From positions 224,001 through 288,000 of the forward strand of contig CAWCMR010000015.1 in NCBI GenBank assembly GCA_963796685.1: a stretch of 64,000 nt of DNA, read 5' to 3'. The notes beneath the pieces were generated by a model that saw only the letters and a program-made list of their open reading frames with translations, did not search any database and was not told where the DNA came from. Numbering within the stretch: position 1 is the stretch's first letter; every line of letters starts with the position of its first letter. Position numbers and translations under genes: made by a program. The stretch is from an uncultured delta proteobacterium (lineage in GTDB: Bacteria > Myxococcota_A > Polyangia > Fen-1088). Positions 2,609 to 41,991 of this stretch are shown here, one piece after another.

Positions 2609-2857
2609 TCAAAGTCGTTCCGCGTCGTGCGCGTGACCGATGGCGGACCGCAGCCCGGGCCCAAGCTTCCGGCAGTCGAACGTCACTTTTTCCGATTGCA
2701 CCGAGACAACGGCATCGACCGGCACCCTGAAGTCCCCGGCATTCTCAACGTAGACGGTGAGAGCGTGGCCATCGGCAGAAATCCCACGTGTTGCCCCGAA
2801 CTCCTCTTCGCCATCCGCGACGAACGTCTGGAAACCGACCTCGATCTTCTCGCGCAT
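2609..2857 (-). CDS. Small hypothetical protein (~82 aa)
   Basis: ATG at 2857 preceded by GAGAGGAG. Protein-like composition: MREKIEVGFQTF...VYVENAGDF...AHDAE. Confidence 0.65.
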   Translation of the reverse strand: MREKIEVGFQTFVADGEEEFGATRGISADGHALTVYVENAGDFRVPVDAVVSVQSEKVTFDCRKLGPGLRSAIGHAHDAERL

Positions 2858-2942
2858 GAAACAGCTCCTCTCCCGAAATCCGGTTTTGCTGCGGTTTAGC
2901 ATCCTTCAGCCATGTTGACACCAAGTTGGGACTTACCACTGT

Positions 2943-5215: not shown

Positions 5216-5327
5216 GAAGAAAGGGAAGGTCGAAGCGGAACGTTCAGATCGTACGAGCTGAAGATAGCGCGGAATTCCGCCGATGCCGGAGATTGCGACG
5301 CGCGGCTATTGCGTTGCAAAATGATGG

Positions 5328-10553: not shown

Positions 10554-10597
10554 CGATTTCCTGAGCCACCATGCAGTGGCGGCGCCACCTTTTGGTC

Positions 10598-14693: not shown

Positions 14694-16436
14694 ATGCCAC
14701 AGGGTTCGTATCAGTCGCGCCTTCTTGCGGTCGCCGCCGCCTTTCTCTTGTCCGCAGGAGGGTGCAATTCCCAGACTGGGGTGACGGGCGGTAGCGGCGG
14801 CTCCGGGGCCGTGGGCTCAGGGGGCAGTGGCTCGGGCGGAAAAGCCGGCGGCGGCTCAGGGGGCAGTGGCTCGGGCGGGAAAGCCGGCAGCGGCGGCACC
14901 GGCGGCACCGGCGGTCTCGCGAGCGGCGGTGACGGCTCGGGTGGCAGTAGCTCGGGAGGTGCCAGCGGCAAGGGTGGCGCTGCGGGGTCGGGCGCCAGTA
15001 GCTCGGGAGGTGCCAGCGGCACGGCTGGCTCAGGCGGCAGCGCTTCCGGTGGCGCCGGCGGCAGGGGTGGAGCTGGCGGCTCCAAGTCAGGCGCTGGTGG
15101 GGGGACAGGCGGTGGTTCGGGCGGAGGCGGGGCGGGCAGCGGCGGAGCGGCAACCGGCGGCACGGGTGGGGCCGGGGGCACGGAGAGCGCCGCTTGCGAC
15201 TTCACGGTCACCTCGCAGCTCGCGAGCGACACCAGCGCAAAGTCGCCCACCACGGTCGGCATCGTCAAGTGGTCGGTCACGGGCATGACGCCCACCAGCG
15301 CGAACATCGAGCTCGGTCTCGATACGACCTACGGCACGAAGGCGCCCGTCGACCTGACGGTGGCAGGCTATCAGACGCCGCTGCTCGGGATGAAACCGTC
15401 CACGACGTATCACTTTCGCATCGTCGCTTCGAGCGGCTCCGCTTCGTGCACCAGCCAGGATCAGACGATTCAAACCGGCGCCAAGGCGACCTCCGTCTCG
15501 ATCGGCAGCTACACCATCAAGAGCGCCAGCGCGCACCAGCGCGGATTCATCATCACGTCGTACTGGAGCGGCTCGGGCAAGTCGGTGCCGTTCATCCTCG
15601 ATGCCGAAGGCAACATCGTATGGTGGTACGGTGGCGGTCCGAGCAATGGCATTGCACGGGCACGCATATCGGCAGACTCCAAGAACATGTGGATGGTCGT
15701 GCCCGACCTGAGCGGCGGCGGGCACGTGCAGCGGGTCAGCATGGATACCCTGGACGGGCAGACGTACGCATCGACCCAGTCCTCGCATGACATCGCGGCC
15801 GTCACCGGCTCGACGATGGCCTACATCGACTACAGCCCGAGCAGCGCGTGCAACGGCAATGGCGGAGGCATCGTCGAAATCGACCCGAGCGGTACGACCC
15901 ATACGGTGGTCAACGCAAGCACCTTCCTCTCCTCTTCGGGGGGCGGCGGAGGTATGGGCTGCCACGGCAATTCCCTGCGCTATTCAGCCAAGGAGGATTA
16001 CTACACCTATTCCGACGTTCAGTCGGACGTCTACATCTTGAACCGCTCGGGTGCGCTGCAGTGGAAGTTGTCGAGCAAGGTCGGCAGCAACAGCTCCTGG
16101 GGCGGCGTGCAGCACGGCCAGCAGCTGCTCGACAACAGCATCATCATCTTCGCCAACTCTGGCGGTGGCAACAACGCCTCGGCGGCCATCGAGTACGGGT
16201 TGGATGGCTCGCTGATCAAGAAGTTCGCCAGCGGTGGGAACACGCAGAACCTCGGCGACGTGCAACGGTTGCCTGGCGGCAACACGCTCATCAACTACGG
16301 CAACGGCGGCAATATTCAGGAAGTAGATTCATCGGGCAACGTCGTCATGGAGATCAAGGGCAGCAGCGGTAGCTACTTCGGCTACTCCGAATGGCGTGAC
16401 AGCCTCTACGGCCCGCCGCTCGACATCAACGAGTAG
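14694..16436 (+). CDS. Lipoprotein with Gly-rich linker, FN3-like domain and arylsulfotransferase-like beta-propeller
   Basis: Lipobox-like AGGC, Gly/Ser linker, LLGMKPSTTYHFRI, then SHD, HGNS, QHG and LGDVQRLPGGNTL. Paralog of 45764-47104. Confidence 0.65.
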   Translation: MPQGSYQSRLLAVAAAFLLSAGGCNSQTGVTGGSGGSGAVGSGGSGSGGKAGGGSGGSGSGGKAGSGGTGGTGGLASGGDGSGGSSSGGASGKGGAAGSGASSSGGASGTAGSGGSASGGAGGRGGAGGSKSGAGGGTGGGSGGGGAGSGGAATGGTGGAGGTESAACDFTVTSQLASDTSAKSPTTVGIVKWSVTGMTPTSANIELGLDTTYGTKAPVDLTVAGYQTPLLGMKPSTTYHFRIVASSGSASCTSQDQTIQTGAKATSVSIGSYTIKSASAHQRGFIITSYWSGSGKSVPFILDAEGNIVWWYGGGPSNGIARARISADSKNMWMVVPDLSGGGHVQRVSMDTLDGQTYASTQSSHDIAAVTGSTMAYIDYSPSSACNGNGGGIVEIDPSGTTHTVVNASTFLSSSGGGGGMGCHGNSLRYSAKEDYYTYSDVQSDVYILNRSGALQWKLSSKVGSNSSWGGVQHGQQLLDNSIIIFANSGGGNNASAAIEYGLDGSLIKKFASGGNTQNLGDVQRLPGGNTLINYGNGGNIQEVDSSGNVVMEIKGSSGSYFGYSEWRDSLYGPPLDINE

Positions 16437-24822: not shown

Positions 24823-26454
24823 CTACCCGGCTGTGTGCGGCAGGCGCCGCGGGCGCCGCTTCCGATCTCGGCGCCACCTTGCCGCGAGGAGTATGCCACT
24901 GCCCATCAGGGTGGCCAGGCTGATAGCGACGCCGGGGTAGAACCCGACGGGGACGAAGGTCGCCTCGACGCGATTTTGTCCGGCGGGCACCGCGACCAGA
25001 ACATTTCGGCCGTGGATGCGAGCAGCCAAGCCGGCGGTTTGCCATTCGAGCCTGCGACGGCTGGTGTGCAGGGGCAGAAGCAACTCGGAGGGCCGGGTCG
25101 CACGCACGTCCCAGACCAATCTATTCGGCGAGGTCTCCACCACCGAAACGGTTGCTTCGCCGGATTCGACCCGGGGCAACACGGGTGACCACGGACGGGT
25201 GAGCACGGGATCGCCAGCCCCGAAATCCTGCCACGGCATCGTCTCGAGGTAGCGCTCGCCGACCAACAGTCCGAGCAGCGCCACGAGCAGCGGCACGCGC
25301 AGCCGGCGCCACCGCGCGTGGCCGGCCAGCCAAGACTCCACGAGGGGAAGGCCGCGTGCGGCGACCAACCAACAGCAAAACACGAATACCGAAAGCAGCC
25401 GCGCGGGTACGCGTTGCCCGGCGATCGTCCACGACCTGAAACCAAGGTCGACGGCCAATGCGAGGGCCAGGGCTGCGACCAGCACCAGGATCGATTCGCG
25501 GGCGCGGCGGGCGGCCCACAGGCCCGCCAGGAGGAGCGCCGCTCCGATGAGCCCCACCGACGCGTCCCGCTCCCACGAAAACGGCACCAGCGATCCGCTG
25601 TAGCCATGGCCCGAGGCGAAGACAGGACCCCCGATGGTCAGGGCTCGCGCGAGATCGCTGGCGGCAATACCCTGGAAGAGCTGGGGCGGCTCGAAGGCGG
25701 CAAATCCATAGGCCGAGGGCAGCACGCGGGCGGCGGAGAGCCCGACCGCGAACAGCAGCGCCAGCGCAAAGACCCGTAGCGGGGCGAGGCTGCGTTCCTG
25801 CGCCGCCCACAGCAAGGCCCAGGCCGCCAGCAGCGCGACCAGCCAGATGGCCGGGTGATGCTGCCCGGCGATGATGAGCAGGGCGATGATCCCGCCGAGG
25901 CCCATGGTGCGGACGGTGTCGCAGCCCATGGACACGGCCCGCTTGAAAAGCAAGGCCGCGAACGGCCACAGGTACACGCCGAGCACCCAATGGTGACCCA
26001 CGATGAAATTCGAGACGGGAAAACCTTGCAGCCCGAAGATCGTAGCCAGCAGCGCAGCAGTCAAGGGCGTGGCGCCCAACCCGCGCGCCAGCAGATAGGC
26101 CCCGCAGATGCCCGCGGTGGCGTAGGCGACGAACAGGAGCTTCAAGTATGCCTGGGCGTGCATGAAATAGAGCAGCCACACCATCGGGTTCAGGATCGGC
26201 GACTCCGGCAACGAAGCGAGGCTATGGGTCCAGGTCTCGTACTGCTTGGGCAGATACAGTGGAAGGGCGCCGTGCTCGCGCAGCGACATGTGAATCCACT
26301 CGTAGAAATGGACGTGTTGTTGCCAATCCAAGGCATCGAAGGAGCCGCCGAAAAGCAGCTTGTGGTAGTACGCGACCAGCGCGCCGGCGACCAGGGCGCC
26401 GGCGAGCAGCGCGCCTCCGGCGCGCCGGAGCGCGCTCGTGAAGCGAACCGCCAT
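24823..26454 (-). CDS. Polytopic membrane protein, YfhO/GT-C glycosyltransferase-like
   Basis: First TM followed by an acidic loop (FDALDW...G.LPL), more than 10 TM helices, a periplasmic C-terminal domain (VPAG...V...F.P) and a final TM. Confidence 0.55.
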   Translation of the reverse strand: MAVRFTSALRRAGGALLAGALVAGALVAYYHKLLFGGSFDALDWQQHVHFYEWIHMSLREHGALPLYLPKQYETWTHSLASLPESPILNPMVWLLYFMHAQAYLKLLFVAYATAGICGAYLLARGLGATPLTAALLATIFGLQGFPVSNFIVGHHWVLGVYLWPFAALLFKRAVSMGCDTVRTMGLGGIIALLIIAGQHHPAIWLVALLAAWALLWAAQERSLAPLRVFALALLFAVGLSAARVLPSAYGFAAFEPPQLFQGIAASDLARALTIGGPVFASGHGYSGSLVPFSWERDASVGLIGAALLLAGLWAARRARESILVLVAALALALAVDLGFRSWTIAGQRVPARLLSVFVFCCWLVAARGLPLVESWLAGHARWRRLRVPLLVALLGLLVGERYLETMPWQDFGAGDPVLTRPWSPVLPRVESGEATVSVVETSPNRLVWDVRATRPSELLLPLHTSRRRLEWQTAGLAARIHGRNVLVAVPAGQNRVEATFVPVGFYPGVAISLATLMGSGILLAARWRRDRKRRPRRLPHTAG

Positions 26455-26741
26455 GTAAACGATCACGGCCCCCAGTATACATCGACACCTTCTCTGCTCT
26501 GCGTTAGGCGATGTCATGGTGAGAAGTTTGCTGTGAGAAGAGCGACGGCGAGCCCACTTTCGGCCGCGCATTTGAGCACTCGAGTGGGTGCAAGGAGGCC
26601 TGGACGAGACCAAGTCTATTCGCATAAGCCTTTGTAATCATAAGTTAAATTGGCAGCATTATGCGGTATTCAGACAGCTTGATGCCGAATTGGCCGATCT
26701 CGCGCCAGCCCTTGACTTGCCCCTCGGCCTCTGCAACTATG

Positions 26742-26793: not shown

Positions 26794-27483
26794 ATGAACA
26801 AGCGAAAAATACCAAGCCGGTGCGTAGAGCGACTCAGCATCTACAGGCGCGCTTTGCTTCAGGATAGGCGTCTGCATGGTCCCAGCATCTATTCCCACGA
26901 GCTGGCGTTCGCCTGCCGCCTGACGGCGGCGCAGGTGCGCCGGGATCTGATGCTCATCGGGTACAGTGGCAGCCCGACCTCGGGCTACGAGGTCAAACGG
27001 TTGCTCTCGTCCATCGGCTCATTGCTCGATCCGCCGAACGTGCGCGAGGTGGCCATCGTGGGTATGGGGCACCTCGGCCGCTCCATCGCGGCCTACCTTG
27101 TGAATCGGTCGCCCAAGATTCAACTGACCGCGGCCTTCGACGTGAAACCCGACAAGATCGGCGCCACCTTCAGCGGCGTGCCGTGCTACTCGGTGCAGAA
27201 GCTGGCCGAGGTGGTTTCGTCGAGGGGCATCGTCATCGGCATCTTGACGGTGCCATCCGAGAACGCCCAGGAGATGGCCGAGCAACTGGTCCGGGCAGGC
27301 GTGACGGGCATCCTCAATTTCGCCCCGGCCTGTTTGCACATTCCCGAAAAGATACACGTCGAGAACATCGACATGACGGTGGCGTTGGAGAAGGTCGGCT
27401 TTTTTGCATGCGGCAGCCATAGAAGAAAAGGAAACATCGATGACCACAGCAGCACGAGCAACATCGACCAAACCGCTCCTTAA
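26794..27483 (+). CDS. rex: Redox-sensing transcriptional repressor Rex
   Basis: IP.....RL..Y.R.L, S.ELA......AQVRRDL..G..G....GY.V, GMGHLG Rossmann motif, GILNFAP. Confidence 0.93.
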   Translation: MNKRKIPSRCVERLSIYRRALLQDRRLHGPSIYSHELAFACRLTAAQVRRDLMLIGYSGSPTSGYEVKRLLSSIGSLLDPPNVREVAIVGMGHLGRSIAAYLVNRSPKIQLTAAFDVKPDKIGATFSGVPCYSVQKLAEVVSSRGIVIGILTVPSENAQEMAEQLVRAGVTGILNFAPACLHIPEKIHVENIDMTVALEKVGFFACGSHRRKGNIDDHSSTSNIDQTAP

Positions 27484-27934
27484 GGAGTTCGGGGCGGCCA
27501 AGCGAGACAGTCTGATCCCGATCCTGCAGAAGGCGCAGGAGGCCCATGGCTATCTGTCCGAAGAGGCGATCGCGGAGATCGGACGCCACCTGAAATTGCC
27601 CGCCAGCAAGGTCTACGGCGTCGCGACCTTCTACAACCAGTTTCGCTTCACGCCCAAGGGCAAGTACCACATCATGCTGTGTCGTGGGACCGCCTGCCAC
27701 GTGAAGGGCTCGCTCAAGTTGCTGGACGCGGTCACCCGCACGCTGAAGTTGCAGGCGGGACAGACCACGCGCGACGGGATGTTCAGCCTGGAAGTCGTGG
27801 CCTGCATGGGCGCCTGCGGCCTGGCCCCGGCCGTGAGCATCAACGGCGAGATGTACGCCAAAGTCACCCCCAAGAAGGTCGGCAAGATCATCGATGAGTG
27901 CCGCGCCAAGGAGCAGACCCATGCCCGTGCTTGA
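27440..27934 (+). CDS. hydC: HydC/NuoE-like [2Fe-2S] subunit
   Basis: LIPILQ.AQE..GYL, GVATFY.QF, CRGTAC, CMGAC. Confidence 0.9.
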   Translation: MTTAARATSTKPLLKEFGAAKRDSLIPILQKAQEAHGYLSEEAIAEIGRHLKLPASKVYGVATFYNQFRFTPKGKYHIMLCRGTACHVKGSLKLLDAVTRTLKLQAGQTTRDGMFSLEVVACMGACGLAPAVSINGEMYAKVTPKKVGKIIDECRAKEQTHARA

Positions 27935-30900
27935 AACACCCGCCAAGACAGCCTGCTGGACCGAACCCTCGCGTCCCACCGCCGAGCTTCTGACCAAACT
28001 GCCCGTGGGGCAGCTTTCGGCCAAGGCCGGTGGCGACATCAAAGAGCGCATCACGCTGCTCCGCCGCGAGAAAGTCGGCAAGCCCACCCTCTTCATCGGG
28101 ACCGGGACGTGTGGCCTCGGCGCCGGCGCGGCCAAGACCATGGAAGCGGCCAAGGCCTACCTCGCCGCCAAGAAGCTCGACGCGGACGTCATCGAGGTCG
28201 GCTGCCTCGGTATGTGCTCGGAAGAGCCCATGCTCGACGTGCAGTTGCCGGGCAAGGCGCGGGTCAGCTTCTGCCGCGTGACCGCCGACCGCGTGGCCTC
28301 GCTCCTCGACTCGGCGCTGGCCGGCAAGGTTGAGGGGGACCTCACGCTGGGGCAGTTCCGCAGCAAGACGGCCGAAGCCTGGCCGAATGTGCCTTTCCTC
28401 GACAAGCACCCGTTCTTCGCCCCACAACTGCGCTGGGTGCTCGCCAACTCGGGCATCATCGATCCCGGTAACATCGACGAGTACATCGCGCGCGGCGGTT
28501 ATGCAGCGATGGAAGCTGCCCTGCGCACGAAGAAGCCGGAAGAGGTGGGCGACATCGTCACCAAGGGCGGTCTGCGCGGCCGTGGCGGCGGTGGCTTCCC
28601 GACCGGCGTGAAGTGGAAGTTCGCGCGCGAGACCCAGGCCGACCAGAAGTACCTCATCTGCAACGCCGACGAGGGCGATCCCGGGGCGTTCATGGATCGC
28701 GCGGTGGTCGAGAGCGATCCGCACCGCCTGCTCGAAGGCATGGTCATCGCGGCCTATGCCATCGGCGCCAGCAAGGCGTACATCTACATTCGCGCCGAGT
28801 ATCCGCTGGCCATCAAGCGGCTCAAGGCCGCCATCCCCAAGGCGACCGAGTACGGGCTCCTCGGCAAGAACATCCTGGGCAGCGGTTTCGATCTCGAGAT
28901 CGTGCTCAAGATGGGCGCCGGAGCGTTCGTGTGCGGCGAAGAAACCGCGCTCATGCAGAGCATCGAGGGCAAGCGCGGCATGCCGCGCCCGCGCCCGCCG
29001 TTCCCGGCGGTGTCGGGTCTCTTCGGCAAGCCCACGGTCATCAACAACGTCGAGACCCTGGCCAGCGTGCCGGCCTTGATGGAGATGGGCGGCGATGCCT
29101 TCGCCGCGGTCGGCACCGCCAAGAGCAAGGGCACCAAGGTGTTCGCGCTCTCGGGCAAGGTCAACCGCACCGGCCTGGTCGAGGTGGCCATGGGCACCAC
29201 CATCCGCGAGATCGTCTTCGACATCGGCGGCGGCATCCCCAACGGCAAGAAGTGCAAGGCCGTGCAGATCGGCGGCCCGTCGGGCGGCTGCATCCCCGAG
29301 CCCAAGATGGACATCATCGTCGACTACGACGCCATCAAGACCGTCGGCGCCATCATGGGCTCCGGCGGCCTGGTCGTTCTGGACGAGAACACCTGCATGG
29401 TCGACCTGGCCAAGTTCTTCATGGAGTTCATCGGCAACGAGAGCTGCGGCAAGTGCATCCCCTGCCGGGAGGGCACCAAGCGGATGCTGGAGATCCTGCA
29501 GGCCATCACCCGGCCGCGGCGGCGCGAGAACGGCAGCGATGCCTTGCTGCGCTTCCAGGGCGTGATGCAGCTCAAGCAGCTGGCCGAAACCATCCGCATC
29601 AGCTCGCTGTGCGGCCTTGGCCAGACCGCGCCCAACCCGGTGCTCACCACCCTGCGCTGGTTCCGCGACGAGTACGAGGCGCACATCTTCGACCGCGCCT
29701 GCCCGGCCGGCACGTGCAAAGAGCTGGTCGGCGCTCCCTGCCAGACCGGCTGCCCGGTAGGCACCGAGGTGTGGCGCTATGTCGCGCACATCGCTCGCGG
29801 CGAAACCGAGCTGGCCTACCAGACCATCCGCGACGCCAATCCCTTCCCGTCGGTGTGCGCACGCGTGTGCAGCCACCCCTGCGAGGAGGTCTGTCGCTGC
29901 GGCGCCACGGGCGGCGAGCCCATCGCCGTGCGCGCGCTCAAGCGCTACGTGGTGGATCACATCGACCCCAGCTCGTACACGGTCACCATCAAGCCAGCCA
30001 CCGACAAGTCCAAGAAGGTGGCGGTCATCGGCGCCGGTCCGTCGGGCCTCACCACGGCCCACTACCTGTCGCAGAAGGGGCACAAGGTCACCGTGTTCGA
30101 GAAGGAAAACGAACCCGGCGGCATGCTCTTCAACGGCATTCCGGCGTACCGCCTTCCGCGCGAGGTCGTGCGCAAGGAGATCGCGTCGCTGCTCAACGCG
30201 AACATCGAGCTCAAGTGCAACATCGCGCTGGGTAAGGACGTGACGGTCGACGGACTCATGGCCAGCGGTTTCGACGCTGTCTACGTTTCCATCGGCGCGT
30301 ACAAGAGCCAGCGTCTTGGCATCGACGGCGAAGACGTGGCCGGCGTGATTCCGGGCATGGCCTTCCTCAAGGCCAATAACCTGCGCGACGAGAAGCTGGC
30401 CAAGGGCAACGTGGGCATCATCGGCGGCGGCAACACCGCCATGGATGCGGCCCGCGTGGCTTTGCGCCAGCCCGGCGTCAAGAAGGTCACCATCCTCTAT
30501 CGCCGCACGCGCGACGAGATGCCCGCCTTCGCCGAGGAGGTTCACGCCGCACTCGAAGAGGGCATCGAGCTCAAGGAGCTGGTCGCTCCGGTCTCGGTGT
30601 TGTCCAAGGACGGCAAGCTCACCGGCATGCACATGATTCGTAACGAGCTCGGCGCGCAGGACGCCAGCGGCCGGCCGCGACCGGTGCCGGTCAAGGGCAG
30701 CGAATTCGAGCTCGCTCTCGATACGCTGATCGTGGCCATCAGCGAGCAGCCGGAGGCCGAAAGCTTCCAAGGACTGCGCACCACCAAGTGGGGCACCATC
30801 GAAAACAACCCGGAGTCGTTGGCGGCCGGCAAGCCCGGCGTGTTCAGCGGTGGCGACGTGGCGCGCGGACCGACCGGCGTCATCGAGGCCATCGCCGACG

Positions 30901-31181
30901 GCAAGCGCGCGGCGTTGATGATCGACCGCTACCTCACCGGACGGCAGATGAAGATGATCAAGAAGGTGAAGTTGCCTTCGATCTACATCGAGCCGCTCCT
31001 GGACGCCGAGGACGACGAGGAATCCGAATCCGTCGCGGTCCGCGCGGTCGAAGAGATGGTGCCCGCCGCCAAGCGGCGCACGAGCTTCGTCGAAGTCGAA
31101 ATGGGTCTGTCGCTGCAGGCGGCGACGGATGAAGCAAGAAGGTGCCTGCGCTGTGACCTGGACTTCACCCGACCCCTTTGA
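27921..31181 (+). CDS. hydB: HydB/NuoF-like FMN subunit fused to a GltD/NfnB-like FAD/NADPH oxidoreductase module
   Basis: GLRGRGGGGFPTG, NADEGDPGAFMD, GGPSGG, SCGKCIPC..C; then PCQTGCP, CARVC..PCE..C, GAGPSG, GGGNTAMD..R, YRR, GGD, EARRCLRC. Confidence 0.9.
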   Translation: MPVLETPAKTACWTEPSRPTAELLTKLPVGQLSAKAGGDIKERITLLRREKVGKPTLFIGTGTCGLGAGAAKTMEAAKAYLAAKKLDADVIEVGCLGMCSEEPMLDVQLPGKARVSFCRVTADRVASLLDSALAGKVEGDLTLGQFRSKTAEAWPNVPFLDKHPFFAPQLRWVLANSGIIDPGNIDEYIARGGYAAMEAALRTKKPEEVGDIVTKGGLRGRGGGGFPTGVKWKFARETQADQKYLICNADEGDPGAFMDRAVVESDPHRLLEGMVIAAYAIGASKAYIYIRAEYPLAIKRLKAAIPKATEYGLLGKNILGSGFDLEIVLKMGAGAFVCGEETALMQSIEGKRGMPRPRPPFPAVSGLFGKPTVINNVETLASVPALMEMGGDAFAAVGTAKSKGTKVFALSGKVNRTGLVEVAMGTTIREIVFDIGGGIPNGKKCKAVQIGGPSGGCIPEPKMDIIVDYDAIKTVGAIMGSGGLVVLDENTCMVDLAKFFMEFIGNESCGKCIPCREGTKRMLEILQAITRPRRRENGSDALLRFQGVMQLKQLAETIRISSLCGLGQTAPNPVLTTLRWFRDEYEAHIFDRACPAGTCKELVGAPCQTGCPVGTEVWRYVAHIARGETELAYQTIRDANPFPSVCARVCSHPCEEVCRCGATGGEPIAVRALKRYVVDHIDPSSYTVTIKPATDKSKKVAVIGAGPSGLTTAHYLSQKGHKVTVFEKENEPGGMLFNGIPAYRLPREVVRKEIASLLNANIELKCNIALGKDVTVDGLMASGFDAVYVSIGAYKSQRLGIDGEDVAGVIPGMAFLKANNLRDEKLAKGNVGIIGGGNTAMDAARVALRQPGVKKVTILYRRTRDEMPAFAEEVHAALEEGIELKELVAPVSVLSKDGKLTGMHMIRNELGAQDASGRPRPVPVKGSEFELALDTLIVAISEQPEAESFQGLRTTKWGTIENNPESLAAGKPGVFSGGDVARGPTGVIEAIADGKRAALMIDRYLTGRQMKMIKKVKLPSIYIEPLLDAEDDEESESVAVRAVEEMVPAAKRRTSFVEVEMGLSLQAATDEARRCLRCDLDFTRPL

Positions 31182-32933: not shown

Positions 32934-33350
32934 ATGAGCGAAACAAAGACGATCCTGATTGTTGACGACGACCTCGACATCCTCGAGCAATACACCCTGC
33001 TCCTCAAGGCGGACGGCCACACGGTCGTGCAAGCCAGCAGCCTGGCCGAGGCCGAGGAGACCATCCTGACGGTTCGCCCCGATCTGGCCATCTTGGACCT
33101 GATGATGGACGAAAAGGACGCGGGCTTCGTGCTGTGCAACCAGCTCAAGCGCTTGTATGCCAACCTGCCGGTCATCATCGTGTCCAACGTCACGCCCATC
33201 ACCGGGCTCGACTTCAGGCCGCGCAACCAGGAAGAGCACTCATGGGTGCGCGCGGATGCGATTCTGAACAAGCCCATCGTCGCCGAGCGTTTGCGCGGCG
33301 AAATTGCCCGGCTGCTCAATCAAGGGCAGGCCGCGGCTGCCGTACACTAG
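32934..33350 (+). CDS. Stand-alone response regulator receiver protein
   Basis: ILIVDDD, ILDLMM (phosphoacceptor Asp), IIVS, NKP; no output domain. Confidence 0.9.
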   Translation: MSETKTILIVDDDLDILEQYTLLLKADGHTVVQASSLAEAEETILTVRPDLAILDLMMDEKDAGFVLCNQLKRLYANLPVIIVSNVTPITGLDFRPRNQEEHSWVRADAILNKPIVAERLRGEIARLLNQGQAAAAVH

Positions 33351-33405
33351 GGCGTGGAGAAAGCACGGCGGGTGAAGTAACCGGCATGCAAAGATGGGAG
33401 CTTCC

Positions 33406-35451
33406 ATGACCATCGCGCAGCCGAAGTGCTTCACCAAGACCGTGAAAGATCGCTGCCACGTCTGCTACACCTGCGTACGCGGTTGCCCGGCCAAGGCCAT
33501 CCGGATCCTGGACCGCCAGGCCGAGATCGTCGCCGATCGCTGCATCGGCTGCGGCAACTGCGTGCGGGTGTGCGGGCGGGGCGCCAAGAAGGTCGTCAAC
33601 ACTGTTCCCGACGTCGAAACCCTGCTCGCCGGGGGCGGGCGTGTGGCGGCCCTGGTGGCCCCCAGCTTCGCGGCCGAGTTCTACGATGTGTGCGAGGCGC
33701 AGAATCCCCAGGTGCTGGTGGGGATGCTGCGCAAGCTCGGCTTCGATCTCGTGACGGAAGTGGCGTTCGGCGCCGACCTGGTCGCGCATGCCTACCGCAA
33801 GCTCCTCGATTCGCGTCCAGCCGGGACGCGCTACATCGCCACCACGTGCCCCGCGGTGGTCGGCTACGTCGAGCGCTACTGGCCCGAGCTGGTTGGCCAT
33901 TTGGCGCCGCTGGTGTCCCCCATGGTGGCCATGGCGCGCGTCCTGCGTGCCATGCATGGGCCGGATCTGCGCACGGTCTTCATCGGGCCTTGCCTGGCCA
34001 AGAAGGTCGAGGCCAGCATGCCCGAGCTCGCTGGCGAGGTGGACGCCGTGATCACCTTCGCCGAGTTGCGCACCATGTTCCTGTCCCATGCCGTGGAGGC
34101 GGCCTCGACGCCGGGAAGCGATTTCGATCCGCCTCACGCCGGGACCGGCACCTTGTTCCCGCTCAACCGCGGGCTGTTCCAGGCCGCCGGCATCAGCGAG
34201 GATTTGGCCAGCACCGAGGCCGTGGCGGCCCACGGCGGGCCAGGGTCGTTCGTGAACGCCATCGAGGAGTTCGCGGGTGGCGACGTCGACTTCGGCCTGG
34301 TCGAGGTGCTGTGCTGCAACGGCTGCGTGTCGGGGCCGGGCATGACCTCGCACGAGAAGACCTTCCGCCGCCGTGCCCGGGTGGCCAAGTACGCCAACGA
34401 GAGCAAACGCACGCGCGACGCGACCAAGTGGTACGACGAGATGGATCGATTTTCCACCGTCGACCTCGCGCGCAAGTTCATTCCCTTCGATCAGCGCACC
34501 GCCATGCCGTCCGAGGAGGAAATTCGCCACATCCTGCGCGGCATGGGCAAGGAGAGCGAGGCCGACGAGCTCGACTGCAAGGCGTGCGGGTATTCGACCT
34601 GCCGCGAGCACGCCATCGCGATCTATCGCGGACTGGCCGAAACGCAGATGTGCCTGCCTTACGTCATCGATCGCTTCGACCACACCGTACGCCAGCTCTC
34701 CGAATCGAACCGACAGCTCGAAACCACGCAAGAGCAGCTCATGCACTCGGAGCGCCTGGCCAGCATGGGGCAGCTCGCCGCCGGCGTGGCCCACGAGCTC
34801 AACAATCCGCTCGGCGTGGTGTTGCTCTACGCGCACCTCTTGCGTGACGAGGCGAGCGAGGACTCGGGCATGCGCAAGGAGCTGACCTTGATCAGCGATC
34901 AGGCCACGCGGTGCAAGCGCATCGTGTCGGATCTGCTCGACTTCGCGCGCGAGAACAAGCTGCTGCTCGAACAGATCAGCGTCGAAGAGCTGATCAAGCG
35001 CAGTCTGGCCGGCCTGCCGTTGCCGCAGGAGATCAACATCGTCCTCGAGCTGGGCCACGTCCACCCCGAGTGCGAGGTCGATCCCGCGCAGATGATCCAG
35101 GTGCTGACCAACCTCTACAGCAATGCCTTTGCCGCCATGCCGAACGGCGGTACTCTGACCATCGCCACGCACGAGGAGGGCGAGCGCCTGATCATCAGCG
35201 TGCACGATACGGGCACGGGCATTCCGGCCGAGAACATGAAGCACATCTTCCAGCCCTTCTTCACCACCAAGCAAATCGGCAAGGGCACGGGGCTTGGCCT
35301 GGCGGTGGTATACGGAATCGTGAAAATGCACCGGGGCGACATCGTGCTCGAATCCAATGCCGATGCGGCGCGCGGTCCCACCTGGACCCGTTTCAAGGTG
35401 TCGATTCCGCACAATCAGGTCATGCAGGGCGCCGAGACGAGGATTGGCTGA
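33406..35451 (+). CDS. Sensory [FeFe]-hydrogenase-like domain fused to a histidine kinase (group C type)
   Basis: 2x[4Fe-4S] (CHVCYTC...CP, CIGCGNC); variant H-cluster motifs TTCPAV, GPCLAKK and EVLCCNGC..GPG; FeS motif DCKACGYSTC; HisKA AHELNNPL; HATPase N/G1/F/G2 boxes. Confidence 0.9.
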   Translation: MTIAQPKCFTKTVKDRCHVCYTCVRGCPAKAIRILDRQAEIVADRCIGCGNCVRVCGRGAKKVVNTVPDVETLLAGGGRVAALVAPSFAAEFYDVCEAQNPQVLVGMLRKLGFDLVTEVAFGADLVAHAYRKLLDSRPAGTRYIATTCPAVVGYVERYWPELVGHLAPLVSPMVAMARVLRAMHGPDLRTVFIGPCLAKKVEASMPELAGEVDAVITFAELRTMFLSHAVEAASTPGSDFDPPHAGTGTLFPLNRGLFQAAGISEDLASTEAVAAHGGPGSFVNAIEEFAGGDVDFGLVEVLCCNGCVSGPGMTSHEKTFRRRARVAKYANESKRTRDATKWYDEMDRFSTVDLARKFIPFDQRTAMPSEEEIRHILRGMGKESEADELDCKACGYSTCREHAIAIYRGLAETQMCLPYVIDRFDHTVRQLSESNRQLETTQEQLMHSERLASMGQLAAGVAHELNNPLGVVLLYAHLLRDEASEDSGMRKELTLISDQATRCKRIVSDLLDFARENKLLLEQISVEELIKRSLAGLPLPQEINIVLELGHVHPECEVDPAQMIQVLTNLYSNAFAAMPNGGTLTIATHEEGERLIISVHDTGTGIPAENMKHIFQPFFTTKQIGKGTGLGLAVVYGIVKMHRGDIVLESNADAARGPTWTRFKVSIPHNQVMQGAETRIG

Positions 35452-36614
35452 TGGGAGAGCGACTACGGGTTCTGGTTGTCGATGACGAAGAGGGTATTCG
35501 TCTCGGCGTGGCTAGGGTTCTCGAACGCTTCGTCGCCAGCTTTCCCGACATCGCGGCCGAGATCAGCTACGACATCGAGTCCGCAGCAAGCGGCGAGGAC
35601 GCGGTGGAACGCCTGCGCGATTCGCCGCCCGACATCCTGCTGCTCGATCTGAAATTGCCGGGCATCGGCGGCCTCGACGTCCTGCGCGAGGCGCGCAATC
35701 TGGAGCCACCCGTCCTGACCATCATGATCACGGCCTACGCCTCGGTGACCACCGCGGTCGAGGCGACGCGCGGCGGGACTTTCGATTTTCTGCCCAAGCC
35801 GTTCACGCCGAACGAAATCAAGGCTTGCGTCCGCCGCGCCACACGCGACCTGGTCTTGAGTCGGCAGGCGAAAAAATTGGCGGCCGAGCAGCGACGCACG
35901 CGCTTCGAGCTCATCCGGGTCCTGGTGCACGAGCTGAAGGCGCCGCTCGGCGCCGTCGAGGGCTATTTGGCCTCGATTCTGGATGGCGTGGTCAACGACG
36001 AGGAGACGCGTCGCCATGTGGTGACCCGATCCATCGCGCGCATCCAGGGCATGCGCCAGCTCATCCTCGACCTGCTCGACGTGACCCGCCTGGAGGCCGG
36101 GATGAAGGCGCGCGATTTCTCGACCGTGTCGCTGACCGACCTGGCGCGCGAGTGCGTGGATGCCCTGCGCCCGCAGGCCGAGGCCAAGCATCTGACCTTG
36201 GAGATCGTCGGTGCCCCCGATCTCGAGCTGGTCGCCGTGCGCGCCGAGCTGGAAATCGTGCTCAACAACCTGCTGACCAACGCCATCAAATACAACCGCG
36301 AGGGCGGCAGCGTGCGCGTGTCGCTGGGGCGGCACGAGGATGTCTTCGTGATCGCCGTGCACGACACCGGCTTCGGGCTTTCGCGCGACGACGCTGCCAA
36401 GCTGTTCAACGACTTCGTGCGCATCAAGAACGTGAAGACCCGCGGCATCGAGGGCTCGGGCCTCGGCCTGGCGACCGTCAAGCGCATCGCGGGCCTGTAC
36501 CACGGCGACGCCACGGTAGACTCGCAGCTCGACCAAGGAAGCACTTTCACCGTCACCCTCAAGGCAGCTGTGCCCGCAAAGGCACTGCTGCCGGAAAAGC
36601 AAGCGCAAGCATGA
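35451..36614 (+). CDS. Hybrid response regulator / sensor histidine kinase (REC-HisKA-HATPase)
   Basis: VLVVDDE, LLDLKLP, ITAY, PKPF; VHELKAPL, NLLTNAIKY, DTG.G, GSGLGL. Confidence 0.92.
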   Translation: MGERLRVLVVDDEEGIRLGVARVLERFVASFPDIAAEISYDIESAASGEDAVERLRDSPPDILLLDLKLPGIGGLDVLREARNLEPPVLTIMITAYASVTTAVEATRGGTFDFLPKPFTPNEIKACVRRATRDLVLSRQAKKLAAEQRRTRFELIRVLVHELKAPLGAVEGYLASILDGVVNDEETRRHVVTRSIARIQGMRQLILDLLDVTRLEAGMKARDFSTVSLTDLARECVDALRPQAEAKHLTLEIVGAPDLELVAVRAELEIVLNNLLTNAIKYNREGGSVRVSLGRHEDVFVIAVHDTGFGLSRDDAAKLFNDFVRIKNVKTRGIEGSGLGLATVKRIAGLYHGDATVDSQLDQGSTFTVTLKAAVPAKALLPEKQAQA

Positions 36615-36874
36615 AAGATCACCGCATCGTAGGTGTCCACATCACCGACCGCGCCACCCACGCCGGCGAGGTCCAAACCATCCTGAGCAAATATGGCAAG
36701 AACATCCGCACCCGGCTCGGCCTGCACGAGGTCAGCGAGGACTCGGCAGCGCCGAATGGCCTCATCATCCTGGAAGCCGTGGGAACCAACCAGGAAATCG
36801 ACGCCCTCTCCGACGAGCTGCGCCACCTCAAAGGCGTGCAAGTGCAGAGCATGTTTTTTTCACATCCTGAGTAG
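36611..36874 (+). CDS. TM1266-like iron-only hydrogenase system protein
   Basis: I.G..I.DR......VQ.ILS.YG..IRTRLGLH...GLI.LE; about 87 aa, located next to hydG. Confidence 0.8.
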   Translation: MKDHRIVGVHITDRATHAGEVQTILSKYGKNIRTRLGLHEVSEDSAAPNGLIILEAVGTNQEIDALSDELRHLKGVQVQSMFFSHPE

Positions 36875-36877
36875 ATT

Positions 36878-36981
36878 TTTCACCACAGAGGGCACAGAGA
36901 GCGCGGAGGTCGGAATGGAAGAATTTCGGATTCAAGAGCCGAAAGCCTCCTACTCTCGGCCTCGGTGCCTTTGCGGTGAAA
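36878..36981. repeat. REP-like palindromic element, copy 1
   Basis: TTTCACCACAGAGGGCACAGAG... pairs imperfectly with ...CTCGGTGCCTTTGCGGTGAAA. Confidence 0.7.
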
Positions 36982-37062
36982 TTCACGAGAACATTCGCCT
37001 AGAGCACCATGGGATTGCCTGGCGCTGCCGGGCCGCCGTGCAGAACGCATACAAGCCATTTT

Positions 37063-37170
37063 TTAACCACAGAGAACACAGAGGTCCGGAGAGTGAAGGG
37101 TTTTCCGGATCTCGATCCGAACCCTTCATTCCTCATCCGTCTCCGTGTTCTCTGTGTCCTCTGTGGTTAG
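37063..37170. repeat. REP-like palindromic element, copy 2
   Basis: TAACCACAGAGAACACAGAG... pairs with ...CTCTGTGTCCTCTGTGGTTA; internal TGAAGGGTT/AACCCTTCA stem. Confidence 0.75.
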
Positions 37171-37307
37171 AATCCGGAAATTGCCCGGGTTTCAACCCGT
37201 TCGGTGCTCTAGTGTCCCTGCCTTGCGAGGAACTCCAGGTCCTCGCGGTAAACCTGGCAGGGCAATGCAGTCTGCGCTAGTCTATCGAGGAAAGAAAGGA
37301 TTTTTCG

Positions 37308-38732
37308 ATGTTGCCCCTATCCAAAACGCTGAGCCAGCATGCCGAGGATTTTATCGACGACGCCCATTTGGAAAGGCTGGCCGGCGCCGCGGATCTGGTC
37401 GATGTGGGGCGCCTGCGCGGCGTCATCGCCAAGGCGCTCGACAAGCAGGCTTTGACCGTCGAGGAAACCGCGGTCCTTCTGCACGCCCGCGATCCGGAGC
37501 TGCGCGAGGAAGTGTTCGCGGCGGCGCGCGATCTCAAACAGCGCGTGTACGGCAACCGCATCGTCCTCTTCGCGCCGCTCTACCTCGGCAATCTGTGCGT
37601 GAACAACTGCGCCTACTGCGGCTTTCAGAGCAACAACAAGGACATGGTCCGACGTACGCTGGGCATGGAGGAGATCCGCCAGCAGGTGGTGGCCATGGAA
37701 AATCAGGGCCACAAGCGCCTCATCGTGGTGTTCGGCGAGCACCCGCGCTACGACGCCGACTTCATCGCCAGTTGCATCCGCGATATCTACGACGTGACGA
37801 GCGGGCACGGCGAGATCCGGCGCGCCAACGTGAACGCGGCCCCGTTCGACCACGCGGGTTTCAAGACCATCAAGGCCGCCGGCATCGGCACGTATCAGAT
37901 CTTCATGGAGACGTACCATCACAAGACCTACGCGCGCGTCCATCCCCACGGCACGCCGAAGGGCGACTACCTGTGGCGGCTCGATGCCCTGAGCCGCGCT
38001 TTCGAGGTGGGGCAGGACGACCTCGGCATCGGCGCGCTCTTCGGTCTGGCGAATTGGCGCTTCGATGTGCTCGGCCTGGTCAGCCATGCGGTCTTCCTGA
38101 AAGAGCGCTACGGCTGCGGGCCGCACACCATCAGCTTTCCGCGTTTGCGGCCCGCCTCTGGCGTGGATCTGGGGAACGAGAACCTGGTCGGCGACGAGGA
38201 CTTCAAATTCCTGATCGCGGTGCTGCGCCTGGCTGTGCCTTACACCGGGCTCATCCTCACCGCGCGCGAGACCGCCGATCTGCGCAAGAGCGCCATGGAA
38301 TTCGGCGTGTCCCAGATCGACGCCGGCTCGTGCGTCGAGCTGGGGGGCTACACCGAACAGACCTGCGGTCAGCGCATGGAGCGCGAGCAGTTCACGCTCG
38401 GCGACATGCGCCCGCTCGATACCGTCATTCGCGAGCTCACCGAGCAGGGGCACGTGCCCAGCTTCTGCACCGCCTGCTACCGCCTGGGCCGCACCGGCGA
38501 GCACTTCATGGAGTTCGCCATCCCCGGCTTCATCAAGCGCTTCTGCACGCCCAATGCCCTGACCACGTTCATGGAATACCTCGTCGACTACGCGACGCCG
38601 GAAACCGCCAAGTCCGGCTTGGCGCAGATTCAGGTCGAGCTCGACAAGCTGGAGGACTCGCCCATGAAGCAAACGTTGATCGAGCGGTTGGCCAAGGTGC
38701 GGGAGACCAACGAGCGGGACATGGTCTTCTAA
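37308..38732 (+). CDS. hydG: [FeFe]-hydrogenase H-cluster maturase HydG
   Basis: YGNRIVLFAPLY..N.CVNNCAYCGF radical SAM motif; GPHTISFPR; C-terminal PSFCTACYR.GRTG..FM...C.PNA. Confidence 0.95.
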   Translation: MLPLSKTLSQHAEDFIDDAHLERLAGAADLVDVGRLRGVIAKALDKQALTVEETAVLLHARDPELREEVFAAARDLKQRVYGNRIVLFAPLYLGNLCVNNCAYCGFQSNNKDMVRRTLGMEEIRQQVVAMENQGHKRLIVVFGEHPRYDADFIASCIRDIYDVTSGHGEIRRANVNAAPFDHAGFKTIKAAGIGTYQIFMETYHHKTYARVHPHGTPKGDYLWRLDALSRAFEVGQDDLGIGALFGLANWRFDVLGLVSHAVFLKERYGCGPHTISFPRLRPASGVDLGNENLVGDEDFKFLIAVLRLAVPYTGLILTARETADLRKSAMEFGVSQIDAGSCVELGGYTEQTCGQRMEREQFTLGDMRPLDTVIRELTEQGHVPSFCTACYRLGRTGEHFMEFAIPGFIKRFCTPNALTTFMEYLVDYATPETAKSGLAQIQVELDKLEDSPMKQTLIERLAKVRETNERDMVF

Positions 38733-41016: not shown

Positions 41017-41991
41017 ATGAGCTCCCCGTCGATCCTTCGTATCGAGCAGGATGCGGTGGCCTTCTTTCTCGACTTGCAAGACAAGATGGTCGCCGGATTG
41101 CAGGCGCTCGATGGCCGCCCTTTTCGCGAGGACGCTTGGCAGCGGCCGGGCGGCGGGGGAGGGCGGTCGCGCGTGCTTGCGGACGGTGGCTTGTTCGAGA
41201 AGGCGGGGGTGAATTTCTCGGACGTGCACGGCAGCATGCGACCGGAGCTGGCGCGCAGCTTGCCGGGTGACGGCGCCGAGTTTCGCGCCACCGGGATCTC
41301 GCTGGTGTTGCATCCGTGCAGCCCGCGCGTGCCCACGGTGCACGCCAATCTGCGCTTCATCAGACGGGGAAGCGCGGCCTGGTTCGGCGGCGGTACGGAT
41401 CTCACGCCCTACTACGTGGTGGCCGAGGACGCGCGGCTGTTTCATCGCAGTCTCGAGGCGATCTGCGCTCGCCACGAGCCCGGCCTGTACCCGCGTTTCA
41501 AGGGCTGGTGCGATCGGTATTTCTTTCTTCCCCACCGCAATGAGCCGCGCGGGGTCGGAGGCATCTTCTTCGACTATCTCGGCGCGGGCGCGGAGGCTGC
41601 CGCCGGCGAACCGCTGCCGCCCTCGACCACCGGGCTCGAAACCGATGTGGCGAAGGTGTTCGCCTTCGTGCGCGACCTCGGGGAGCACATGCTGGATGCA
41701 TACACCACCATTGTCGGGCGCCGCCGCGAGGAGACCTGGGGCGAGCGCGAGCGAGAATGGCAGCTGCTCCGGCGCGGGCGCTACGTCGAATTCAACCTGG
41801 TCTACGACCGGGGAACCCTGTTCGGCCTGCGCACCGACGGCCGCACCGAATCGATTCTGATGTCGTTGCCCCCCGAGGTGAAATGGCGATACGGCGCCGT
41901 TCCCGAGGCCGGCTCTCCCGAAGCGCGTTCGCTGGAGGCCATCTGTGCGCGGCGCGACTGGGCGCGGGAAGAACGGGAAGAAGTCGAATAG
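41017..41991 (+). CDS. hemF: Oxygen-dependent coproporphyrinogen III oxidase
   Basis: [64 protein letters not shown]. Confidence 0.95.

Follow-up and report, generated by a model that had tools for sequence, protein, structure and literature searches.

The window analysed here, the whole stretch of 64,000 nucleotides from an uncultured delta proteobacterium (GTDB lineage Polyangia, Fen-1088; assembly GCA_963796685.1, contig CAWCMR010000015.1, positions 224,001 to 288,000), contains a hydrogenase operon in which the gene for the beta subunit, hydB*, encodes a genuine fusion of a HydB/BfuB core with a C-terminal GltD-like module for flavin adenine dinucleotide (FAD) and NADPH. By its sequence, HydB* would belong, as beta subunit, to a soluble [FeFe] hydrogenase of the HydABC type linked to both NAD(H) and NADP(H), with NADP(H) in ferredoxin's place, a proposal to which we give an even chance.

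The fusion and its spread among relatives

hydB* is one uninterrupted open reading frame on the forward strand (27894–31181), 1095 amino acids long from its first ATG, from which all residue numbers given here are counted. A start at Met10 (27921), which is nearly invariant in an alignment of 25 relatives (alignment A1), gives 1086 amino acids, in agreement with a preliminary description of the sequence that had announced a single protein of about this length with a NuoF core running into a GltD-type module. The core covers approximately residues 60–612 and the module residues 613–1095, and all of the motifs quoted in that description were located, namely DEGDPGAFMD (259–268), GGPSGG (460–465), the H...CP..C site (H597...C603-P...C608), GAGPSG (713–718), GGGNTA (844–849) and YRR (869–871).

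The window's genome (G000) and 40 related genomes, 41 in total, were searched for the fusion, and the figures given refer to the matches listed. At least eight full-length, stop-free frames (query residues 2–3 to 1095) were found, seven of them in other genomes of the genus (83–97% identity) and the eighth in another family of the class (65% identity). Three more genomes of the genus contain partial frames that end at contig ends, and matches occur in all 12 of the 12 other genus genomes. The matches in 12 other genera of the same family are weaker (best E 1e-64 to 1e-120), with no full-length fusion among those listed, and fused forms with 48–65% identity are present in several genomes from other families of the class. 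The best 120 protein-database clusters listed all combine PF10589, PF14691 and PF07992, most at a length of 1020–1130 amino acids and with 68–97% identity in the junction region; their sources include Polyangiaceae, Lentisphaerae, Planctomycetes and Elusimicrobia. Among the 150 best-scoring representatives at 50% identity, 27 align continuously through the junction.

Contigs of three public runs (peat, soil and permafrost), 85–95% alike to the window, also span the junction (~29730) free of gaps (X1 record 2; X15 records 10, 11, 12 and 14; X16 records 21 and 22), with no insertion or deletion between 29430 and 30222. The run shares are all at most 0.22, meaning that the runs contain relatives and not the window's organism, and X15 and X16 are RNA libraries, which is not proof of transcription. 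The stop and start between the modules that the preliminary description had named as a refutation is absent. An artefact, whether from an overlooked stop codon, a frameshift or two genes wrongly joined in assembly, retains a negligible probability in view of the stop-free frames elsewhere, the architecture common to all listed clusters, the matches and contigs that run through the junction and a third-position GC content of 0.90 throughout the frame; the fusion is genuine and that explanation is refuted.

Domain anatomy and breakpoint

Residues 66–616 align end to end with the bifurcating beta subunits of solved structures (T. sibiricus NfnB 9n5u_B, E = 4.6e-200; [NiFe] HydB 7t2r_B, 1.1e-195; S. 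ovata StnB 8oh5_B, 1.5e-189; A. woodii HydB 7q4v_B, 7.9e-185). Within this core (Table 1), the four Cys ligands of the [4Fe-4S] B1 domain are invariant in 25 of 25 rows of alignment A1. In the N-terminal domain, Cys104 and Cys108 are likewise invariant and Cys73 is present in at least 90% of the rows; the metal here may be either a [2Fe-2S] cluster or Zn. The SLBB domain PF10531, with GGPSG at 460–464, scored 25.8 bits (E = 9.4e-6), slightly below its cut-off of 27 bits. In the linker, C501, H597, C603 and C608, all four invariant in A1, align one-to-one with C437, H524, C529 and C534 of T. sibiricus NfnB, which were named as Zn ligands of that protein (PMC12018979).

The breakpoint is sharp. 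After CPAGxC-x4, canonical relatives continue with two CxxCxxC motifs and end approximately 73 residues after the His, whereas the fused forms continue with LVGAPC..GCP, the Fer4_20 motif. The tail of approximately 60 residues that forms a 2x[4Fe-4S] ferredoxin-like domain (B3/B4) is absent from HydB*, as the preliminary description had maintained: no ferredoxin-type Fer4 family other than Fer4_20 was detected by Pfam at E<=0.01, while the neighbouring HydA matched many, and no CxxCxxC motif follows the Zn site. The two [4Fe-4S] sites of the module stand directly behind the Zn site, and the iron–sulfur wiring is therefore kept, in another fold.

An AlphaFold2 model computed from the 25 relatives of A1 has confident domains (mean predicted local distance difference test score, pLDDT, 76.2; predicted template modelling score 0.55), and a Foldseek search with it returned the same two-way split into core and module structures. 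With NCBIfam, the fused protein stayed below the cut-off of every model; TIGR01316 scored 326.9 bits (cut-off 471.75) and TIGR01318 277.6 bits (cut-off 482.95).

Table 1. Domains of hydB* and genes of the surrounding cluster, in coordinates of the window.
Feature	Position	Strand	Basis or remark
rex, redox-sensing repressor	26794..27483	+	likely start ATG 26794; listed open reading frame starts at GTG 26761
hydC, NuoE-like [2Fe-2S] subunit (C1 cluster)	27440..27934	+	likely start Met13 (27440); listed open reading frame starts at TTG 27404
hydB*, fused beta subunit	27921..31181 (1086 aa, Met10) or from ATG 27894 (1095 aa)	+	end coordinate includes the stop codon
N-terminal domain of HydB*, Cys73/Cys104/Cys108 conserved	28077..28343	+	aligns with N-terminal domains of 9n5u_B, 7t2r_B and 8oh5_B
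FMN/NAD(H)-binding domain, residues 222-393, including DEGDPGAFMD	28557..29072	+	PF01512 Complex1_51K, 163.9 bits
[4Fe-4S] B1 domain (four-helix bundle), residues 504-597; Cys518, 521, 524, 573	29403..29684	+	PF10589 NADH_4Fe-4S, 100 bits
Linker metal site ('B2' Zn site), His597, Cys603, Cys608 and upstream Cys501	29682..29717	+	alignment to T. sibiricus NfnB
Fer4_20 domain, residues 607-690, two [4Fe-4S] sites	29712..29963	+	Fer4_20, 79.1 bits
FAD and NADP(H) Rossmann domains, residues 707-1003, including Arg753	30012..30902	+	PF07992 Pyr_redox_2, 83.4 bits
C-terminal segment, residues ~1055-1088, ending Cys1084-x2-Cys1087	31056..31157	+	alignment to classical and permuted modules
hydA, group A [FeFe] hydrogenase catalytic subunit, 573 aa	31210..32931	+	Pfam/NCBIfam
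Single-domain response regulator	32934..33350	+	PF00072, 55.5 bits
Sensory-type [FeFe] hydrogenase domain fused to histidine kinase	33394..35451	+	PF02906 155.2 bits, FeS, HisKA, HATPase_c
Receiver and histidine kinase protein	35460..36614	+	start uncertain; listed open reading frame begins at 34911
hydG, H-cluster radical SAM maturase	37308..38732	+	TIGR03955, 476.7 bits (cut-off 312.15)

The core: Bfu membership and bifurcation marks

The definition of BfuB given by Schut et al. 2022 (PMC9304861) consists of four InterPro domains, one of which is of the ferredoxin type. HydB* contains the FMN (flavin mononucleotide)/NADH domain (IPR011538), the NuoF-type [4Fe-4S] B1 domain (IPR019575), the B2 linker site of three Cys and one His and the N-terminal B5 domain (aligned from residue 66), and the NuoE-like BfuC partner (IPR002023) is encoded directly upstream (PF01257, 175.6 bits); the C-terminal ferredoxin-type domain (IPR017896, B3/B4) is missing, as judged by Pfam and motif comparison. 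The SLBB domain of the definition (IPR019554) is represented by the Pfam match just short of its cut-off that is given above.

According to Losey et al. 2020 (PMC7311640), Ala and Met in the stretch DPGAFMD, together with GGPSG, mark the bifurcation type, whereas non-bifurcating NADH-dependent HydB proteins have Thr/Ser and Lys/Ser/Ala in the corresponding DPGxFxD stretch and no GGPSG. HydB* carries the bifurcating pattern (Ala265, Met267 and GGPSG at 460–464) and not the non-bifurcating one, which bears out the statement of the preliminary description that bifurcation-associated signatures are kept. In solved relatives the site of bifurcation is reported to be at FMN with B1 and C1, and the C subunit swings C1 from FMN to B3/B4. 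Bfu enzymes bind ferredoxin between their C subunit and the beta subunit's B3/B4 domain (PMC12018979), in line with the earlier premise that canonical enzymes reduce ferredoxin through the C-terminal domain.

The module: permuted and Lys-ligated

Residues 614–1088 match best the NADPH insert of the A subunits of Bfu transhydrogenases (9bov_A residues 102–567, E = 6.7e-105; 9n5u_A, 5.4e-102; 8oh5_C, 3e-93), followed at lower scores by the classical T. maritima NfnB (4ylf_B, 6.8e-87), 5jca_L (1.5e-74) and GltD (about 1e-60). Residues 454–489 of the module query (its last 35, ..RRCLRCD) form an out-of-order stretch against residues 9–43 of 4ylf_B and align in order with 9bov_A up to residue 567. 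The C-terminal segment is the equivalent of the N-terminal start of classical NfnB, and the module is therefore circularly permuted, a trait common to the Stn/Nfn-Bfu modules. Cys1084 and Cys1087 are invariant in A1, and a Cys pair is present in all of the fused modules.

The Fer4_20 ligands are Cys616, 620, 659, 663 and 667 together with Lys683; Cys620, 659 and 663 align with C108, C147 and C151 of C. saccharolyticus NfnA, and Lys683 with its Lys ligand K170. The non-Cys ligand of the FAD-proximal cluster is Lys in C. saccharolyticus NfnA (K170) and in StnC, and Glu in classical NfnB (PMC11829005, PMC10482914, PMC12018979). In StnC, Cys114 has been reported to alternate with the Lys as ligand; the corresponding position in HydB* is Val626. 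Among 49 modules sampled, the fused or permuted-insert modules have Lys (34/36) or His (2/36) at the ligand position and all end with a CxxC, while most of the classical-type modules from the same loci and from the window's genome (G0C5, G0C8 and eight others) have Glu and no C-terminal Cys pair. Exceptions to this split are three paralogues of the window's genome and the locus L020, which are intermediate.

The FAD and NADPH marks (GxGxxG twice, YRR and the Arg of GIPxYRLP) are present and invariant across the 25 relatives, and the NADPH-type signature noted at the outset matches the modules of Stn and Nfn-Bfu, enzymes shown to use NADPH. In these enzymes the module oxidizes NADPH, and bifurcation is reported not to take place at its FAD (PMC10482914). 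HydB* lacks the Glu ligand, the N-terminal Cys pair and the free-standing subunit of approximately 470 residues that characterize classical NfnB and GltD. The placement of the module also departs from that in Stn, where it is inserted in a NuoG-like A subunit between the [2Fe-2S] domain and the rest: here it makes up the second half of the beta subunit, and no such insert is present in HydA. The 'GltD/NfnB-like module' of the preliminary description is thus right as to the FAD/NADPH fold and not as to a generic GltD/NfnB type: on sequence criteria, the module is of the permuted, Lys-ligated StnC/NfnA type of Stn/Nfn-Bfu enzymes and not of the classical, Glu-ligated one.

Origin of the fusion

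Loci were sampled with NuoF-generic peptide patterns, which yielded 80 loci in a mixed, non-random sample; counts of partners describe this sample, not nature. The core tree (residues 61–612) comprises 94 rows, 26 fused and 68 unfused, drawn from the 80 scanned loci and from fetched regions, with nine redundant same-genus loci and one hit of 40% left out. The clade of the window lies inside canonical HydA-linked HydB proteins with a ferredoxin tail (Shimodaira–Hasegawa-like approximate likelihood-ratio support 99 and 98), its canonical neighbours being from Thermoguttaceae (73% identical), Elusimicrobiales, Kuenenia and others. The closest canonical genomic relatives are 59–73% identical in the core and 50–67% identical in HydA. 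At least 11 changes of the fused state are needed on this tree.

On the module tree, the module of the window belongs to a clade of 11 with a support of 100, together with modules of fused BfuB proteins whose only partner is NuoG-like; on the core tree, the cores of those companions fall in the opposite half. A core tree constrained to hold these 11 rows together is 209 log-likelihood units worse (p = 1.25e-6 in the approximately unbiased test, for a group picked with both trees in view). The core and module trees disagree, which points to a cassette swap; the lineage would go back to a canonical HydB whose tail was replaced by the module of another fused BfuB.

Proposed mechanism and its alternatives

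By its sequence, HydB* keeps the whole bifurcation-type core through the Zn site, with the FMN/NAD(H) site, the B1 [4Fe-4S] cluster and the linker Zn site, and HydC brings the C1 [2Fe-2S] cluster. Five residues past the Zn site, the B3/B4 domain, which in solved relatives relays low-potential electrons from C1 to ferredoxin, is swapped for a 480-residue NADP(H) module of the Stn/Nfn-Bfu type with two [4Fe-4S] clusters (a distal one and a proximal one ligated by Lys), FAD and a pocket for NADPH. In the mechanism that we favour, from the order of the sites, the iron–sulfur pair of the module probably stands in for B3/B4, and the electrons that canonical enzymes pass to ferredoxin would go to FAD and NADP(H). 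H2 would then be coupled with NAD(H) at FMN and with NADP(H) at FAD (2 H2 + NAD+ + NADP+ <-> NADH + NADPH + 2 H+). In a fermenting cell the probable direction would be H2 formation, with the more reducing NADPH pool helping to pull the oxidation of NADH. This could make it the first Bfu-type enzyme without a need for ferredoxin, the low-potential branch of its FMN/B1/C1 site leading into a covalently attached NADP+ reductase and its turnover splitting or merging electrons between the NAD and NADP pools, with H2 as third partner and with the difference in reduction state between the pools as the sole driving force, a bolder claim that we consider somewhat improbable.

Several points weigh against this proposal. 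NAD+ and NADP+ share the same standard potential, so that bifurcation between them would be driven by pool ratios alone, and to our knowledge no Bfu enzyme bifurcates between the two. Ferredoxin stays in play, because the homologous iron–sulfur pair of classical NfnB is the ferredoxin route. The bifurcation-type motifs may have been inherited from a recent canonical ancestor and no longer be used. The AlphaFold2 model is poor at the junction (pLDDT <50 at 598–618) and in the iron–sulfur loops. As for the origin, the group compared in the approximately unbiased test was chosen after both trees had been viewed. The third mark of Losey et al., Phe versus Tyr, probably falls at F403, and is weak because the bifurcating T. 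sibiricus and S. ovata proteins have Tyr at that likely position. A scan for the Rex operator TTGTGAA-N4-TTCACAA with <=3 mismatches found none near the operon, which shows neither presence nor absence of Rex control. Finally, the literature searched, with subscription journals and supplements outside the search, yielded no assay, cofactor analysis or structure of any member of the fused family.

Ferredoxin could still be a substrate, with the clusters of the module acting as wire and dock as in NfnB; the enzyme would then join four pools (H2, NAD, NADP and ferredoxin) and contain a built-in Nfn-like transhydrogenase. The Fer4_20 clusters are indeed homologous to the ferredoxin-reducing pair of NfnB (4ylf_B 6.8e-87, 5jca_L 1.5e-74), pyruvate:ferredoxin oxidoreductase (PFOR) of the same genome makes reduced ferredoxin, and for the archaeal HydB with a glutamate-synthase domain, PMC11216029 conjectures that ferredoxin accepts the electrons there. 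However, Lys-ligated clusters of the Stn type pass electrons of NADPH inward and not to ferredoxin, the experimentally seen ferredoxin site at the interface between the C subunit and B3/B4 is absent here, and the genome already has two canonical HydABC operons of the ferredoxin type, and we hold this coupling of four pools to be unlikely. To a non-bifurcating enzyme with two independent doors, NADH at FMN and NADPH at FAD, each working alone with the H-cluster and with no energetic coupling, we ascribe a similarly low probability. The non-bifurcating relatives that Schut et al. (PMC9304861) list have lost B3/B4 too, NADH-only HydABC enzymes exist (PMC7311640) and the NCBIfam name of HydA is 'NADH-dependent [FeFe] hydrogenase, group A6'; on the other hand, the beta subunit has the bifurcating and not the non-bifurcating pattern, retains the N-terminal domain and the Zn site, both of which non-bifurcating homologues are said to lack, and has a core that nests among canonical, full-tailed HydB proteins.

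It is very unlikely that the module has no role in NADP(H) turnover during H2 metabolism and instead serves another acceptor, as in GltD, polysulfide or similar, or persists as a regulatory or structural relic. A link to glutamate was raised in PMC6163223, and GltD-like modules serve many enzymes in the NCBIfam list, but the conserved gene cluster contains no glutamate synthase large subunit or other such partner, and the nearest solved homologues are NADPH-oxidizing modules. A relic is difficult to reconcile with iron–sulfur, FAD and NADPH marks that are all invariant across the 25 aligned relatives.

Comparison with known systems

The window shares with the HydABC enzymes of T. maritima, A. 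woodii and T. kivui (7p5h, 7q4v, 8a6t) the hydC-hydB-hydA order, a group A HydA with the same N-terminal iron–sulfur domains and the HydB core with its N-terminal domain, FMN site, B1 and Zn site (44–58% identity by structure alignment, E 1e-161 to 1e-185). While HydABC has the B3/B4 tail of approximately 60 residues that reduces ferredoxin, the window has the FAD/NADPH module of 480 residues. The Stn/Nfn-Bfu enzymes (S. ovata StnABC 8oh5, C. saccharolyticus NfnABC 9bov, T. sibiricus 9n5u) contain the same type of module, permuted and with the Lys, the Arg of GIPxYRLP and YRR (38–41% identity by structure alignment, E 3e-93 to 7e-105), and the same BfuBC-type core. Theirs, however, is inserted in the A subunit as the input of mid-potential electrons, and the B subunit retains the ferredoxin tail, whereas in the window the module sits on the B subunit in the place of the tail and the A subunit is a true hydrogenase. 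Classical NfnAB/NfnSL and GltD (4ylf_B, 5jca_L, 2vdc_G) have the fold and cofactors of the window's module (two [4Fe-4S] clusters, FAD and NADPH), but with a Glu ligand and an N-terminal Cys pair, and they are subunits of their own, partnered by NfnA or GltB; the FAD of classical NfnB is reported to be the bifurcating site itself.

The idea and the architecture are already in print, because a GltD-type HydB has been described twice: in silico for the trimeric hydrogenase of Vallitalea guaymasensis L81 in a genome paper of 2018 (PMC6163223), and in 2024 for archaeal group F hybrid hydrogenases, whose HydB was modelled with a glutamate-synthase domain (PMC11216029). Both reports, compared by description only, give in words the same domain replacement and the guess of a second NAD(P)H site; the archaeal complexes differ in that [NiFe] subunits are also present. 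The novelty assumed in the preliminary description is accordingly reduced. HytA-E of C. autoethanogenum (PMC5861303) is, as would be the enzyme of the window, a multimeric NADP-linked [FeFe] hydrogenase; by its description in the available text, it uses NADP(H) with ferredoxin and has an FMN-containing, NuoF-like HytB for which a GltD-like module goes unmentioned. A similar move is seen in the HdrA-NfnB fusions of ANME-1 archaea (PMC9012536), where the ferredoxin domain of a bifurcating flavoprotein has taken up an NfnB-like module; HdrA, as host protein, and the metabolism have no relation to those considered here. Under the limits of the literature search given above, no assay of a HydB-GltD hydrogenase was found, nor any work that places the module in the Stn type, shows the halves to have incongruent histories or describes the fused subunit with formate-dehydrogenase-like or NuoG-only partners. 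GltD or glutamate synthase is not mentioned in PMC11406978, PMC9304861 and PMC8924675, the supplementary tables of PMC9304861 lying outside the search.

Significance

Bifurcating hydrogenases govern the hydrogen and redox balance of anaerobic communities, and their mechanism is debated. The fused variant is a natural test of the model in which C1 gives low-potential electrons to the occupant of the B3/B4 position, and it is of moderate interest as an experiment that nature has made on the Bfu mechanism. Should NADP(H) take ferredoxin's role, the H2 yields and NADPH supply of peat and soil bacteria would need other bookkeeping, and a ferredoxin-free, nucleotide-only [FeFe] hydrogenase would be of interest for cofactor-regeneration systems. 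The fused family is large, lacks a curated name and may escape domain-based Bfu surveys; the survey of Schut et al. may not have counted fused proteins, because its definition of BfuB includes the ferredoxin-type domain. Since the BfuB-NADP cassette also occurs beside formate-dehydrogenase-like and bare NuoG-like partners, it could define an overlooked Bfu branch, which the published definition, requiring a ferredoxin-type domain, may have left out.

Partners of fused subunits and genomic setting

The combination of Complex1_51K, Fer4_20 and Pyr_redox_2 next to hydA, which the preliminary description had proposed as a search, was encountered at 7 of the 26 fused loci of the non-random sample, where a true HydA lies downstream; four of these are from the window's genus. 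A molybdopterin, formate-dehydrogenase-like protein is encoded near six others, 11 have only a NuoG-like protein of approximately 200 residues and two end too early to tell. Among the sampled loci, the closest fused relative outside the genus is L093 (G025:C66, 1444–9654), one of the formate-dehydrogenase-like group, with a core 73% and a module 60% identical to those of the window and the gene order fdhD, NuoG-like/molybdopterin protein, hydC, fused BfuB and response regulator. Its molybdopterin protein was read as two frames (2798–3847 and 3896–5482), which may be due to a selenocysteine stop or to a break.

Operons consisting of a hydC-like gene, a fused BfuB-NADPH module and the NuoG-like gene of about 200 codons form a class of their own (L094–L099 and L034; for example G025:C14, G035:C580 and G007:C42). 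No catalytic third domain was found in the fetched DNA around them, and histidine kinases are often nearby. The class is present in three genomes of the window's genus, not in the window's genome, and could represent a transhydrogenase built unlike Stn.

The window's genome (7.3 Mb, 88.6% complete) encodes three multimeric [FeFe] hydrogenases. Besides the one described here, contig C3 contains hydCBA operons at 70792–76184 and 89551–93686 whose HydB proteins have regular 2x[4Fe-4S] tails; ahead of the first lies a gene for a Rex-like protein that shares 33% identity with the Rex of the window. Two NuoEFG sets, PFOR (1813.6 bits) and PntB are also present, and RnfD was not detected in the genome at its given completeness. 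The fused enzyme is thus an addition and not a substitute, because two canonical HydABC operons and PFOR are found in the same genome. A Lys-type permuted NADPH module also lies inside a frame of 1517 amino acids on contig C3 (28355–29833); it groups with Stn-type inserts on the module tree and has no adjoining BfuB gene.

The gene cluster

Of the genes listed in Table 1, rex encodes a protein of the Rex subfamily (NF003995, 202.4 bits, cut-off 126; Pfam Put_DNA-bind_N and CoA_binding). HydC, which also matches NuoE (NF005722, 153.4 bits, cut-off 141), has both Cys pairs in its translation (CRGTAC and CMGAC). HydA conforms to a group A [FeFe] hydrogenase by its H-cluster domain (PF02906, 314.5 bits), small-subunit-like tail (PF02256, Fe_hyd_SSU, 82.1 bits) and N-terminal iron–sulfur domains (Fer2_4 and NADH-G_4Fe-4S_3), and scored 824.2 bits with NF040763, above the cut-off of 765. 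Its first H-cluster motif, near residue 296, reads TSCSPGW, where the form TSCCPxW of prototype [FeFe] hydrogenases is expected. As a mark of the fused type this reading was ruled out, being present in 25 of 34 canonical and six of seven fused HydA proteins sampled, and also in both other HydA proteins of the window's genome; it is a trait of the HydABC-type hydrogenase group and not of the fusion, because it is the majority form among the HydABC-type HydA proteins sampled.

The order from rex through hydC, hydB*, hydA, response regulator, sensor kinase and kinase to hydG is kept in genomes G002 and G012, and, except for rex, in G001, where a Rex gene was looked for upstream of the operon and none was found. 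The response regulator 3' of hydA is syntenic in all three. The sensory protein has two Fer4 motifs, Fe_hyd_lg_C and FeS, followed directly by HisKA/HATPase_c, and its hydrogenase domain is only 24–25% identical to HydA. Together with the flanking receiver proteins it looks like an H2-sensing two-component circuit. The set of receiver, sensory hydrogenase-kinase and receiver-kinase comes after hydA throughout the genus, as it does in divergent operons of the fused kind (G029 and G025), and a second hydrogenase-like frame is found 3' of hydA in 10 of the 13 closest canonical loci (L001–L013). A frame of 195 amino acids between the kinase gene and hydG (36693–37280, forward strand), with a high third-position GC content, has no Pfam or NCBIfam match.

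Other features of the window

The sole match of the Rex operator scan, at 55029, is far from the operon and at chance level. Enzymes for plant polymers are encoded on the forward strand at 10571–12451, 44167–45459 and 57363–59087 (a pectinase-like protein of glycoside hydrolase family 28, a glucuronoyl-esterase-like protein and a protein bearing a carbohydrate-binding module of family 9), which fits a polysaccharide degrader. A histidine-specific S-adenosylmethionine methyltransferase (PF10017, 335.7 bits) adjoins a DinB/FGE-sulfatase protein on the reverse strand (2943–5215), a pair that we take to be typical of ergothioneine synthesis (EgtD/EgtB). Genes of the mevalonate pathway occupy 48290–51547 (reverse strand), and an oxygen-dependent coproporphyrinogen oxidase is encoded at 41017–41991. 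Two long frames, at 24823–26625 (reverse strand) and 14694–16436 (forward strand), have a third-position GC content of 0.81–0.82 and no Pfam match at 1e-8.

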